Shown here piece after piece: positions 4,015-43,855 of a DNA stretch of 64,000 bases. The notes below the pieces were generated by a model. That model was not told the DNA's origin, ran no database searches, and worked only from the letters and a program-made list of their open reading frames with translations. The position numbers and the translations under genes are program-made. Location: assembly GCA_045633565.1 (NCBI GenBank), contig JAZQYO010000007.1:8724-72723 (forward strand), written 5' to 3'. The stretch's first letter is position 1; each line of letters starts with the position of its first letter. The DNA is from Clostridia bacterium. Its GTDB lineage: Bacteria; Bacillota; Clostridia; RUG12999.

Positions 4015-4263
4015 ATACAAAAAAATTCCTTCCGCCCACATTGGGACGGAAGGACAATTCCTTACGCGGTACCACCCAAATTCCGGATAAAAATCCGGCA
4101 CTTTTTAAAGATATAACGGTCTTTCCCGGCAAACCCTACTGGCCTTTCAGGTTTGCAGCTCCTGAGCGAACTTCATCTGTCGCTTTTCGCAGAACAGCTT
4201 TCAGCCTGTGGCATGTTCCTCTCTTGGCGTGCTGACGCAGATTACTTTTCTCAATCACAGCTT
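4015..4263 (-). promoter_or_regulatory. T-box riboswitch leader (Phe-specific) with promoter and intrinsic terminator, upstream of pheS
   Basis: Minus-strand sequence AATTTGGGTGGTACCGCG (plus 4065-4082) matches the conserved T-box motif. A terminator hairpin TCCTTCCG..CGGAAGGA (4027-4054) is followed by T-run on the minus strand. A UUC triplet sits in the candidate specifier region (..GAAGUUCGCU..). Promoter TTGCAA(4294-4299)-17-TAAAAT(4271-4276) lies on the minus strand. Confidence 0.8.
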
Positions 4264-4302
4264 TTAAAACATTTTATCACATATTTTTGTCATTTGCAAG
4301 TG

Positions 4303-32362: not shown

Positions 32363-33676
32363 TTAACCGTTTTTAATATTAGATACTATATCACTGTAGT
32401 CACTTTCAACTGCTTTGTCTATTTTAATTGATTTACCTATTTTATCAACTGCATGTAAAACCGTTGTATGGTCACGATTAAAAGAAGAACCAACTTTTGG
32501 AGTAGATAAATCAAGGAGATTCCGACAGATATACATTGCAAGCTGACGAGCGTAAGAAATTTCTTTGGTTTTCTTTTTAGACATCAAATCTTCAACTGTA
32601 ATTCCAAAATAGTCGCTGACATAACTTTTAATTTCGTCAACTGTGTAAATTTTCTGAGCCTGGTTTTTATATTCGCCCAAAATATTTTTAGCAGTGTCAA
32701 GGTTGATAGTTGTTTTACTTAAGGATGAAAGTGCAGAAACTCTGTTAAGCGCTCCTTCAAGCTCCCTGATGTTGGTGTCAACACTTGAGGCTATGTAATC
32801 TAAAACATCAGCAGGAATTTCCGCATGGGTTCCCTGAAGTTTTTGCTGTAAAATAGCAAATCTTGTTTCGTAATCGGGGGACTGAATATCACAAACTATA
32901 CCCCATTCAAAACGGGTAATTAGTCTTTCCTCAATATTGTTAAGTTTTTTAGGCGGTTGGTCGGAAGAAATAATAATTTGCTTGTCCGCCTGGTGCAGAT
33001 GATTAAAAGTATGGAAAAATTCCTCCTGAGTTGATGTTTTTCCTGCAATAAACTGAATATCGTCTATTAACAGAACATCAATCTGACGATATTTATTTCT
33101 GAAACTTTCGTTTGTGCCCTTCTGAATTGAATTAATAAGTTCGTTTGTAAAATCAACAGAAGGAATATATAAAACCTTAAGAGAGGGATTCAAAACAGAA
33201 ATATAGTTTCCTATAGCGTGAAGAAGATGAGTTTTTCCAAGGCCGGAAGAGCCGTAAAGGAAAAGTGGGTTATATGCCTTTGCGGGTGTTTCAGCAACAG
33301 CAACCGAGGCAGCATGAGCAAATTTATTTGAAGAACCCACAATAAAGTTATCAAAAGTGTATTTTGGATTAAGTCCGATAGCATTTTTATTAAAAACAGG
33401 AATTTTTATTTCCTTTTCTATGCCCTTTTCGGAAGATAAAATTACATTAACGGAAACTGCTTCTTCAATAACTGTAGAAAGGCATGCCGAAATAACCGAA
33501 GAATATCTTGAAGAAATCATATTCTTAAGAAAATCCGTTTCGGTTGCAAGTGTAAATATGCCGTCATTATAGGAAACAGGCTCAAGAGGTTTTATCCATG
33601 TGTCAAAAGAAACCCCTGTCAGATTTTCCTTTAAAAGCATACGGGCTTTTTCCCAGTAAAAATTAATATTATCCAT
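32363..33676 (-). CDS. dnaA: chromosomal replication initiator protein DnaA
   Basis: AAA+ Walker A (GSSGLGKTHLLHA), sensor motifs and C-terminal DnaA-box-binding HTH (..SYARQLAMYICRNLLDLS..). Confidence 0.97.
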   Translation of the reverse strand: MDNINFYWEKARMLLKENLTGVSFDTWIKPLEPVSYNDGIFTLATETDFLKNMISSRYSSVISACLSTVIEEAVSVNVILSSEKGIEKEIKIPVFNKNAIGLNPKYTFDNFIVGSSNKFAHAASVAVAETPAKAYNPLFLYGSSGLGKTHLLHAIGNYISVLNPSLKVLYIPSVDFTNELINSIQKGTNESFRNKYRQIDVLLIDDIQFIAGKTSTQEEFFHTFNHLHQADKQIIISSDQPPKKLNNIEERLITRFEWGIVCDIQSPDYETRFAILQQKLQGTHAEIPADVLDYIASSVDTNIRELEGALNRVSALSSLSKTTINLDTAKNILGEYKNQAQKIYTVDEIKSYVSDYFGITVEDLMSKKKTKEISYARQLAMYICRNLLDLSTPKVGSSFNRDHTTVLHAVDKIGKSIKIDKAVESDYSDIVSNIKNG

Positions 33677-37995: not shown

Positions 37996-38011
37996 GTGTA
38001 TGAAAATTTAA

Positions 38012-38150
38012 TCGGGGTGCTGATTTTCGGCTGAGAAAGCGATTGCTTAACCCGCGAACCTGATACGGATAATGCCGGCGTAGGAATAATAATCGATTAT
38101 TTTGCTCTACTGGGATTTCCCGGTGGAGCTTTTTTAATCCATCAGGAATT
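38012..38150 (+). promoter_or_regulatory. TPP (thiamine pyrophosphate) riboswitch
   Basis: GGGGTGC..GGCTGAGA..AACCC..GAACCTGATACGGATAATGCCGGCGTAGGAA matches the THI-element consensus (CTGAGA, ACCTGATCTGGATAATGCCAGCGTAGGGAA). The downstream gene is thiT. Coordinates are approximate (+/-2). Confidence 0.85.
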
Positions 38151-40857: not shown

Positions 40858-40890
40858 AAAAGCTGCCCACCGGGCAGCTTTTACTTTTTT
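40856..40890. terminator. bidirectional terminator (AGCTGCCC-accg-GGCAGCT flanked by A5 and T-runs)
   Basis: Serves azlD on the plus strand and the XRE gene 40881-41096 on the minus strand. Confidence 0.65.
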
Positions 40891-41096
40891 GGATAAGGCT
40901 TTTTCTCGTCAGTAAGTCCTGCTAAATAGTCCATACTGGTATCAAGGGCAATCGCAAGTTTTCTGCATTGTTCAAATGTAAAATATCTTTTTCCGCTTTC
41001 GAGTTTGGAATAATCACTTTGGTCAATTCCTGTCAGCATCTGCATTTTTACCTGTGTATATCCCTTTTCTTTTCGTAGTTCTTTTAATCTGTTCAT
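40881..41096 (-). CDS. XRE-family HTH transcriptional regulator (tandem paralogue 2)
   Basis: 71 aa with HTH (KGYTQVKMQMLTGIDQSDYSKLESGKR). C-terminus ..EKKPYPKK is identical to the tail of the upstream paralogue. Confidence 0.6.
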   Translation of the reverse strand: MNRLKELRKEKGYTQVKMQMLTGIDQSDYSKLESGKRYFTFEQCRKLAIALDTSMDYLAGLTDEKKPYPKK

Positions 41097-41100
41097 ATTA

Positions 41101-41325
41101 TCATTTTTTTGGATAAGGCTTTTTCTCTGAAGAAACGCCGCAAATATAGTTCATATCTACATCGTAATAGCGGGCTAATAATATAACACTGTCTAAAGGA
41201 ATTCTTGTTTTACCAAGCTCATAGTCGGAGTATGTTTTCTGACCTATATTCAAAAGTCTTGCTATTTCTGTCTGATTTTTGTCTGCATCTTCACGAAGTC
41301 CACGAATTCTCTCAATTGCATCCAT
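41101..41325 (-). CDS. XRE-family HTH transcriptional regulator (tandem paralogue 1)
   Basis: 74 aa with HTH (QTEIARLLNIGQKTYSDYELGKTR). Same ..EKKPYPKK C-terminus. The 3' DNA (TTTTTGGATAAGGCTTTTTCTC) is repeated at the end of both genes. Confidence 0.6.
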   Translation of the reverse strand: MDAIERIRGLREDADKNQTEIARLLNIGQKTYSDYELGKTRIPLDSVILLARYYDVDMNYICGVSSEKKPYPKK

Positions 41326-41421
41326 AAAGACACCTCCTACAATAGCTATTGTACAATAGAGTTATTTTCACTATTGATTTTTAGTGTTATTTACTCTATA
41401 ATATACACAGGGGTGATAAAA

Positions 41422-41676
41422 ATGGCAGAATTCTGTTTTGAATGTTTTAAGAAAATTCATCAAACAAATAAACCGGAAAACGAATACATTTTTTCGAAAG
41501 ATACATACTTGTGTGAGCAGTGCGGAGAGTGGAAAAAGGTTGTTATTATGGAAAAGAAAGGGTATTACTTGTACAAACTAAGATTTATACTGTTGCCACT
41601 TTATATTTTGTGGAAAATAATCATTGTTCCGTACACCATTTATGATTACAATAAAAAAATAAAAAACCGCCGTTAA
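41422..41676 (+). CDS. small zinc-ribbon protein with C-terminal transmembrane helix
   Basis: 84 aa from ATG 41422 (RBS AGGGGTGA). Has CFECFKK..(23 aa)..CEQCGEW, then a hydrophobic segment LRFILLPLYILWKIIIVPY and a basic tail. Divergent from the XRE pair. Confidence 0.45.
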   Translation: MAEFCFECFKKIHQTNKPENEYIFSKDTYLCEQCGEWKKVVIMEKKGYYLYKLRFILLPLYILWKIIIVPYTIYDYNKKIKNRR

Positions 41677-41834
41677 CGGCGGGAAAGAATAAGTTGCAGA
41701 GATGGATTCGCTTTGCTGCGGCAAAGCCGGGTCGTGGCTCTGACATGCCCCCGGCATGTCATTCACTACCACTCCCTTCGAATCCGCCTCTCTCACATAA
41801 AAAAATCCGCACAACAAATGTTGTACGGATTTTT

Positions 41835-41919
41835 TGGTGGAGAGAGATGGATTCGAACCATCGAAGGCGGTGCCAACAGATTTACAGTCTGCCCCCTTTG
41901 GCCACTCGGGAACCTCTCC
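41835..41919 (-). tRNA. tRNA-Tyr (anticodon GTA), 85 nt with long variable arm, CCA encoded
   Basis: Reverse complement GGAGAGGTTCCCGAGTGGCCAAAGGGGGCAGACTGTAAATCTGTTGGCACCGCCTTCGATGGTTCGAATCCATCTCTCTCCACCA gives a cloverleaf with 7-bp acceptor, CUGUAAA anticodon loop, GATGG-TTCGAAT-CCATC T-arm and 13-nt variable arm. Confidence 0.9.
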
Positions 41920-41925
41920 AAAAAA

Positions 41926-42001
41926 TGGAGCTGGTGATGGGACTCGAACCCGCGACCTGCTGATTACAAATCAGCTGCTCTACCAATTGAGCTACACCAG
42001 C
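41926..42001 (-). tRNA. tRNA-Thr (anticodon TGT), 76 nt, CCA encoded
   Basis: Reverse complement GCTGGTGTAGCTCAATTGGTAGAGCAGCTGATTTGTAATCAGCAGGTCGCGGGTTCGAGTCCCATCACCAGCTCCA. Acceptor, D and anticodon stems pair. The T-stem has one C-A mismatch. It lies 6 nt upstream of tRNA-Tyr on the same strand. Confidence 0.85.
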
Positions 42002-43330: not shown

Positions 43331-43492
43331 TATAATCGCTCCTTTATCAACTAATTATAAACAACCGGGTCCGATTTGTCAAGATTAATAAAATAATTTT
43401 CAATGACTCTTGCATTTTTTACACAAATATCGTATAATAAAAGTAGGTATATTATTTTTTTGCCGCACACAAGCGGCGGAAGGGAGATTTTT

Positions 43493-43855
43493 ATGGATTT
43501 TATGAATGTTGTAAGAGAAAAAGCGGCAGCACTGGCTCATGGTGCGGTAAAAACTTCAAATGCAGTTGTAGAAACGGTTAAATCCAATCTGGCTATTGCA
43601 GATAAAGAAGCCGAAACCACAAAAATTCTCCGTCAGCTGGGCACACTTATGTATGATGCTTACAAGGATGGCTCAGATGTTGATGCAGATGCAGTTGCAG
43701 AAAAATGTGCAGCTTTAGATGACTATTTCAGCGAAATCGCAGCTTTAAAGGAAAAAGTAGGCGAAATTAAAAACACAAAAACTTGTCCGAAATGCAACGC
43801 AAAGGTTAAGGCGGATTTTAAATTCTGCCCCGTTTGCGGCGAAAAAATGGACTAA
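43493..43855 (+). CDS. zinc-ribbon domain protein
   Basis: 120 aa from ATG 43493 (RBS GGAAGGGAG). C-terminal CPKCNAKVKADFKFCPVCGEK zinc ribbon. Promoter TTGCAT-17-TATAAT lies upstream. Confidence 0.5.
   Translation: MDFMNVVREKAAALAHGAVKTSNAVVETVKSNLAIADKEAETTKILRQLGTLMYDAYKDGSDVDADAVAEKCAALDDYFSEIAALKEKVGEIKNTKTCPKCNAKVKADFKFCPVCGEKMD

Follow-up and report, generated by a model that had tools for sequence, protein, structure and literature searches.

Organization of the locus

The DNA analyzed is a stretch of 64,000 nucleotides (nt) from a Clostridia bacterium (assembly GCA_045633565.1, contig JAZQYO010000007.1, positions 8,724 to 72,723), hereafter called the window. Between azlD and a tRNA-Tyr/tRNA-Thr pair it carries two tandem genes for small helix-turn-helix (HTH) regulators of the XRE type, HTH1 and HTH2, and a divergent gene for a small CxxC protein with a hydrophobic tail, here called ZnR. 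Both the gene layout and the position of the module had been described in an earlier note on this sequence; the genes are present as claimed, and the position is confirmed by tRNA detection and by the Pfam annotation of a near-identical contig (L001, ERZ28653778 scaffold_30), in which azlC and azlD lie upstream of the module. The real unit is a two-gene cassette, in which the genes for a small DNA-binding protein and for ZnR are separated by about 100 nt of nearly invariant promoter/operator DNA; this regulator-ZnR pair, found in at least 80 species of gut Clostridia, is previously undescribed. The window holds the cassette with one extra regulator, and its parts are as follows.

40858-40882, unstranded: bidirectional terminator hairpin between azlD (plus strand) and the HTH2-HTH1 operon (minus strand); terminator scan and inverted repeat I11, 11-bp perfect arms
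40881-41096, minus strand: HTH1, XRE regulator of 71 amino acids (aa); Pfam HTH_3, 49.9 bits
40885-40907, unstranded: tail repeat copy 1, encoding EKKPYPKK of HTH1; repeat family D1 and codon comparison
41101-41325, minus strand: HTH2, XRE regulator of 74 aa; Pfam HTH_3, 46.1 bits
41105-41127, unstranded: tail repeat copy 2, encoding EKKPYPKK of HTH2; repeat family D1 and codon comparison
41326-41421, unstranded: divergent promoter/operator region, 96 nt; promoter scan, palindrome and conservation
41422-41676, plus strand: ZnR, 84-aa 'MAEFC' zinc-ribbon protein with C-terminal hydrophobic helix and basic tail; open reading frame (ORF), AlphaFold2 and substitution rates

Both regulators score above the gathering threshold of HTH_3 (PF01381, 23 bits), matching profile positions 1-55. 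HTH2, directly divergent from ZnR, is preceded by a strong GGAGG ribosome-binding site; HTH1, second in the operon, begins 4 nt past the end of HTH2 and lacks a Shine-Dalgarno sequence. The operon ends at the bidirectional terminator that it has in common with azlD. As to ZnR, the length, the divergent orientation and the CxxC pair agree with the earlier description, with two corrections: the stop is at 41676, not at 41690, and the cysteines (C5/C8 and C31/C34) are arranged as CxxC-22-CxxC, not with a spacing of 23. Near-identical contigs of the same species (L001-L003) were found in gut metagenomes by exact-protein look-ups. The organism probably belongs to the Monoglobales, the order given by the source of a relative with 82% Spo0A identity.

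The ratio of nonsynonymous to synonymous substitution rates (dN/dS) is about 0.1 for ZnR, 0.03-0.05 for HTH2 and 0.02 for HTH1 (the last from the comparison with the relative L004). These values indicate that all three are real, translated genes under purifying selection; the low ratio of ZnR removes the case of an untranslated zinc-ribbon ORF, which the earlier note had named as speaking against its own proposal.

The ZnR family and its partner regulators

A ZnR profile built from six sequences retrieved, at E<=0.001, 543 representatives at 50% clustering, and 358 clusters at 90% identity. All the representatives are labelled 'hypothetical' and none carries a Pfam domain. A word-indexed search had returned 5 relatives, as for a clade-restricted family, a possibility rejected by the exhaustive profile search and by a genome scan.

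The scan, performed on one genome per GTDB species, identified 80 ZnR loci, in taxa including Merdimmobilis, Soleaferrea, Massiliimalia, Pseudoflavonifractor and Angelakisella, as well as Lawsonibacter, Faecousia, Congzhengia and Acutalibacteraceae. At nearly every locus a divergent gene for a DNA-binding protein of 49-105 aa is located about 70-120 nt upstream of ZnR. The identity of this partner changes from locus to locus: HTH1-like XRE proteins, at least three other XRE types, HTH_26 and CopG-like ribbon-helix-helix (RHH) proteins were all found, along with an RHH-like type ('KTIRFPNDV') for which there is no Pfam model. Stacks of two or three small regulators, similar to that of the window, are present upstream of ZnR in L043, L067 and L068. 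Downstream of ZnR, no conserved gene was found among the scanned loci; the flanks elsewhere are housekeeping genes, such as leuA/leuB, ctsR-mcsAB-clpC, hslO and rpsF-ssb-rpsR. Very long ORFs resembling ZnR fusions in the high-GC loci L061, L062 and L071 were discarded as run-on ORFs.

Two forms of ZnR can be distinguished. The long one (84-99 aa) has a hydrophobic tail and is paired with XRE and HTH_26 regulators; the short one (56-68 aa) has a basic aromatic tail, lacks the hydrophobic helix and in most cases has the RHH-like regulator as its partner. The core that stays invariant is the N-terminal ribbon, MAEFCxxCWNK...LCEGCGEWKxV. The AlphaFold2 model, obtained from 79 sequences, consists of a zinc ribbon (residues 1-44) and one long helix (residues 45-83), with a mean confidence score (pLDDT) of 88; the best 19-residue Kyte-Doolittle window in the C-terminal half reaches 1.99.

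ZnR itself has no match in Pfam, NCBIfam, PHROG or PADLOC. When 79 family members were scanned with Pfam, none reached threshold, and the matches below it were to generic zinc ribbons: DZR was weakly matched in 13 of the 79 (best E-value 0.003), and the LITAF-like zinc ribbon (PF10601) in just 4, with ZnR at 14.0 bits (E=0.059) against 23.8. Profile search of the PDB found no relatives, Foldseek of the model gave nothing below E=3.8, and a literature search found nothing relevant. Two known kinds of small protein were considered and rejected. A zinc-binding anti-sigma factor (ZAS) would have an HxxxCxxC motif, in place of the CxxC...CxxC without histidine seen here, and no sigma factor gene is adjacent; for a holin, there is no adjacent lysis gene and no PHROG match, and many family members have no transmembrane segment. 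The many tail-less members weaken the toxin or holin role proposed for ZnR.

HTH1 and HTH2 as partners of ZnR

The divergent regulator paired with ZnR in distant genomes (L015, L016, L018, L021-24, L030, L033, L036, L037, L039, L042, L068, L078 and L094) shares 80-91% identity with HTH1. In these genomes ZnR is only 40-57% identical to that of the window, and HTH2 shares only 28-38% with the same regulators. HTH2 adjoins ZnR in all six related lineages. HTH1 is thus the canonical ZnR partner of other genomes, and HTH2 is a clade-specific regulator with an operator of its own.

The divergent promoter region

The intergenic region contains, at 41346-41359, the perfect palindrome CTATTGTACAATAG, which occurs nowhere else in the window. 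A half-site CTATTG (41371-41376) overlaps the -35 box TTGATT (41374-41379) of the ZnR promoter, identified by promoter scan as TTGATT-17-TATAAT, with the -10 box at 41397-41402; a possible -10 box for the HTH2 operon lies back-to-back with it, at 41405-41400. The 96 nt are near-invariant in the six HTH2-type lineages, where synonymous sites are near saturation (synonymous divergence, dS, of 0.7-1.4). HTH1-type loci, belonging to different genera, have a different, equally conserved region with two ATTATGGYRAAATT repeats, one of them in the -35/-10 spacer of the ZnR promoter. In the window this HTH1-type motif occurs 10 times at two mismatches, against 6 expected, and none of the matches is near the module. 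Since this is not above chance, HTH1 has no evident local target.

A proposed repressor-gated effector

We favour, with moderate confidence, the view that the locus is a chromosomal cassette of two genes that stands on its own, joined by an additional regulator, and works as a repressor-gated membrane effector; the fallback offered by the earlier note, an uncharacterised small regulatory circuit, fits. We infer repression by HTH2, a membrane location of ZnR and an effector role for it. HTH2, a minimal XRE protein, would bind the palindrome and the adjacent half-site, repressing both its own operon and the facing ZnR promoter. ZnR, held at the membrane by its C-terminal hydrophobic helix with the four-cysteine ribbon in the cytoplasm, would remain silent until the repressor is relieved, and would then act as a small effector at the membrane. 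In this clade HTH2, with its different operator, stands between HTH1 and ZnR, and HTH1 survives as a co-transcribed, constrained gene for which the window offers no operator recognisable as its own type. The DNA encoding the tail is also a substrate for recombination, by which HTH1 was deleted in at least one relative.

Several observations weigh against this interpretation. About one third of the ZnR family is of the short form, without hydrophobic helix and mostly with RHH partners, so that membrane anchoring is not universal and the core function should reside in the zinc ribbon. The chance-level occurrence of the HTH1-type operator leaves the present role of HTH1 without explanation. The ZnR -35 box is overlapped by the half-site alone, the full palindrome being located further upstream, and it is just the position of the operator that suggests repression rather than activation. 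In two relatives whose Spo0A is 82-85% identical, this locus has no cassette, which is therefore dispensable.

Exchangeable repressors, scattered stand-alone sites and patchy presence resemble what is seen in conflict or addiction cassettes; on the other hand, divergent genes, apparently bare DNA-binding partners and short forms lacking the tail are at odds with type II toxin-antitoxin systems of the classical kind. It is conceivable, though doubtful, that the regulator-ZnR pair is a new and widespread cassette of this kind, gated at transcription, in which a 'MAEFC' effector, targeted to the membrane in its long form and harmful once expressed, would be held off only by a dedicated, exchangeable mini-repressor. 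The logic would be that of toxin-antitoxin systems, exerted through promoter control instead of protein neutralisation, and regulator stacks such as HTH1-HTH2 would record successive replacements of the repressor.

ZnR might otherwise be a membrane-tethered regulatory partner: as an anti-repressor or sensor it would bind the XRE proteins and sequester or modulate them, within a signal-responsive switch acting on targets elsewhere, with HTH1 as its output. This we consider unlikely. It would account for the strong constraint on HTH1 despite the lack of a local operator, for the conserved C-terminal tail of both HTH proteins, which could be a docking peptide, and for the tandem regulator stacks upstream of ZnR in the three loci mentioned above; the form of ZnR also tracks the type of partner. 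However, linkage alone can explain this last correlation, and one conserved ribbon would have to recognise the unrelated XRE, HTH_26 and RHH folds. Moreover, some of the partners are bare RHH domains of 49-57 aa, with no room for docking.

Mobile elements and variability of the locus

The repressor-gated cassette was also compared with the proposal of the earlier note, according to which a prophage, or an integrative and conjugative element (ICE), had integrated at a tRNA-Tyr/Thr hotspot and left the module behind as its immunity or toxin switch. Some features are in keeping with it, among them the lower GC content of the module (about 33%, versus about 42% in the flanks) and the variability of the locus among relatives. 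Relatives picked via ZnR all keep HTH2-ZnR, and azlCD, HTH1 and an operon coding for a GntR regulator, an ABC ATPase and a DUF6449 protein are each present or absent among them; in two relatives picked without bias, via Spo0A (85% and 82% identity), the dnaA-thiT-spo0A synteny is kept and the cassette is missing. The variable operon was found between ZnR and the tRNA-trailing element (see below) in several relatives (L004, 3562-6852) and directly after spo0A in L178 (7231-10248); it is missing in the window (41677-41695) and in L008, and no flanking repeats were seen at the indel.

The HTH proteins resemble phage and inovirus repressors (40-59% identity; 47-59% for HTH2, with gut phage and inovirus contigs). 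Against the RstR family NF041951 they reach 52.7 (HTH1) and 33.3 bits (HTH2), below the cutoff of 80, over profile positions 1-70 of 108. MT839708, the best HTH2 match, is a 4-kb contig that is unverified and whose genes look bacterial. This likeness is a general XRE similarity. In IMG/VR, 23 contigs contain the ribbon domain only, in some cases fused to DUF5662, and most of them lack a divergent regulator. The MAEFC ribbon of L101, L109, L110 and L118, from the same database, is either fused to DUF5662 (about 200 aa) or alone (46-64 aa), with the match at about 8001.

A 13-nt repeat (41698/41843) reproduces the 3' end of tRNA-Tyr between ZnR and the tRNA, and could be taken for an attachment site. 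It does not bracket the module, however: no further copy of the tRNA-Tyr 3' end occurs in the 64 kb, including the far side of the module, and the copy at 41698 belongs to a separate element found behind tRNA-Tyr in about 50 unrelated contigs. Moreover, no integrase or other phage or ICE gene is found near the module in the Pfam-annotated flanks; ZnR has no match among 50,697 INPHARED phage records or 72,556 PLSDB plasmid records; the cassette elsewhere stands alone between housekeeping genes; and all three genes are under strong purifying selection. An origin as an integrated remnant is, on this evidence, improbable. The cassette is accessory and sits in a recombination-prone region, without the mark of an integrated element.

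The shared C-terminal tail

The identical EKKPYPKK tails and the duplicated 3' DNA of the HTH genes, reported in the earlier note, correspond to an exact repeat of 23 nt (TTTTTGGATAAGGCTTTTTCTC plus one T), at 40885-40907 and 41105-41127. Throughout the HTH1-like subfamily, distant genomes included, the motif TDEKxPYP[RK] is conserved; it is therefore an old family feature rather than a mark of duplication. That the two genes are a recent tandem duplicate, with the repeat as its leftover, is hardly credible in spite of their head-to-tail order, similar length and identical tails and tail DNA, as the proteins are 37% identical overall and 29% (18/63 residues) outside the tail, HTH1 is much closer to distant-genome regulators (80-91%) than HTH2 is to the same ones (28-38%), and the tails differ at 6/24 nt in L004, the sole other lineage with both HTH genes.

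The tail of HTH1 in the window is written in HTH2-type codons (GAG AAA AAG CCT TAT CCA AAA), 23/24 nt being identical. Given the differences between the L004 tails and a dS of about 0.9 between the lineages, the 23-nt identity of the window is best read, from the codon comparison, as local gene conversion.

The same repeat marks a deletion junction. In L013 HTH2 is alone. Taking the 220 bp that separate the two tail copies out of the window sequence gives that of L013, in which the azlD terminator flank (the hairpin of 40858-40882) is retained beside the single HTH gene and the stop context is of the HTH1 type. L004, which has both genes, is more distant from the window (dS 0.9-1.4) than L013 (dS 0.7), so that the tandem state is ancestral and HTH1 was lost by recombination between the tails.

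The tRNA-trailing element and other features of the window

The region beyond ZnR contains the following features.

41660-41682, minus strand: intrinsic terminator, with the ZnR stop codon within the loop, ending the tRNA-trailing transcript; terminator scan
41696-41793, minus strand: Y-shaped tRNA-trailing structured element, outside the HTH-ZnR cassette; folding, pattern scan and covariation
41800-41835, unstranded: hairpin with T-runs on both strands, directly after tRNA-Tyr; inverted repeat I2, 17-nt arms, 94% complementary
41835-41919, minus strand: tRNA-Tyr(GUA); tRNA detection
41926-42001, minus strand: tRNA-Thr(UGU); tRNA detection
42065-42037, minus strand: consensus promoter of the tRNA-Thr/tRNA-Tyr pair; promoter scan

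The element, about 98 nt in size and located between ZnR and tRNA-Tyr, is predicted to fold into a three-way junction (z-score -6.3). In its outer stem, the 3' arm repeats the sequence found at the 3' end of the upstream tRNA, and the 5' arm is complementary to this copy, which explains the att-like 13-nt repeat near tRNA-Tyr; in L165 and L171 the copy extends through CCA. By pattern scan the element was found in 51 metagenome stretches (L124-L174), where it nearly always follows directly on tRNA-Thr(UGU)-tRNA-Tyr(GUA), and in one case on tRNA-Pro; it is also present in L004 (6903-7012) and L008 (1270-1378). Some gut contigs contain tandem arrays of up to five units, spaced by about 155-165 nt.

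In an independent alignment of 17 sequences, changes on both sides were observed for 14 of the 32 pairs, and 94.9% of the cells were paired, versus about 40% with the partners slid; in the model-fitted alignment 22 of the 32 pairs covary. The strand is not settled by the G-U versus A-C counts of the 17-sequence alignment (14 versus 12); position-specific G-U pairs, evaluated on the larger model-fitted alignment, favour the tRNA strand. No Rfam family was matched by the element at gathering score or at E<=1, the tRNAs alone being matched at the window locus and at nine related loci. The element is unrelated to the HTH-ZnR cassette, and could be either a small RNA of the tRNA operon whose end resembles a minihelix, or a miniature element, integrative or repetitive, that targets the T-loop.

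Another duplication of a tRNA fragment was observed within the same clade, in L177 (7946-8312), one of the relatives without cassette. Here azlD is followed by tRNA-Arg(CCU) and, about 190 nt past it, by a partial second copy of the 5' part of this tRNA, beside a CTGCGGCAAAGCCGCAG hairpin.

The wider neighbourhood includes, by Pfam annotation, thiT, spo0A, azlCD, an SLH-PPIase and a two-component system. A second small protein, unrelated to ZnR, is encoded at 43403-43855 (plus strand), just upstream of the response regulator/histidine kinase pair, which it adjoins in L008 too; it has a C-terminal double zinc ribbon, with weak Pfam DZR/Zn_Ribbon_1 matches (on L001). At Rfam gathering score, a thiamine pyrophosphate (TPP) riboswitch was detected upstream of thiT (38003-38104, plus strand) and a T-box leader at 4039-4267 (minus strand). 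The region at 32363-33676 (minus strand) of the window was considered together with the flanks of L177 and L178: in the syntenic relatives dnaA is about 5 kb upstream of spo0A, so the window is probably close to the replication origin.

Comparison with known systems

The cassette has features in common with type II toxin-antitoxin systems (HigBA, HipBA, MqsRA, ParDE), which are likewise compact two-gene units scattered among housekeeping genes, patchy in their presence and provided with a small DNA-binding protein that autoregulates and whose fold, XRE or RHH, is exchangeable. In contrast to them, the genes are divergent (ZnR on the plus strand, HTH on the minus strand, with the 96-nt promoter region in between) and not co-transcribed, as in the about 80 other loci; the regulators seem to be bare DNA-binding domains lacking a segment for toxin binding, the HTH proteins having only an 8-10-residue tail past the HTH fold and several partner RHH proteins measuring 49-57 aa; ZnR matches no toxin family (Pfam, NCBIfam, PHROG and PADLOC negative); and control would be transcriptional only. 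MqsA combines a four-cysteine ribbon and an XRE HTH in one functional unit, as does the cassette, where, however, the two domains are separate, divergently encoded proteins, and only the HTH part matches TIGR03830, weakly (24.8 versus 61.8 bits).

As proposed for the cassette, controller (C) proteins of restriction-modification systems and divergent switches of the phage CI/Cro type rely on a small XRE protein that, bound to palindromic operators in a short regulatory region, gates a potentially harmful neighbour; overlapping divergent promoters are a further common feature. HTH1 is weakly matched by the PADLOC control-protein model (30.7 bits). No restriction, methylase or phage gene is present near the module, though, and the gated gene codes for an 84-aa zinc-ribbon protein.

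A similar XRE repressor is found in the RstR modules of CTX-phi and of inoviruses, as indicated by the partial NF041951 match and by 47% identity to the repressor of Bajarodino virus 76, which also faces a small protein with a transmembrane segment. The inovirus protein, however, has neither cysteines nor a zinc ribbon, and the module lacks rstA/rstB, Zot and coat genes, its NCBIfam score being under the cutoff. With tail-anchored or LITAF-like zinc-ribbon membrane proteins, and with the DZR/zinc_ribbon families, ZnR shares a CxxC...CxxC ribbon joined to a hydrophobic membrane segment, but its Pfam matches are sub-threshold and the PDB offers no sequence or fold match.

Significance of the cassette

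The locus is a detailed example of how a shared coding tail of 23 nt mediates both gene conversion and gene loss between paralogous regulators. On a wider scale, the analysis defines a protein family that has no curated model and makes it annotatable, by means of a strict genomic signature, namely a divergent, exchangeable mini-regulator and a near-invariant operator. Should ZnR be a co-regulator, XRE and RHH proteins would gain a membrane-linked partner of a new kind; if it is a gated effector, a compact regulatory or conflict module would be added to the abundant and poorly studied gut anaerobes of the Oscillospirales and Monoglobales.

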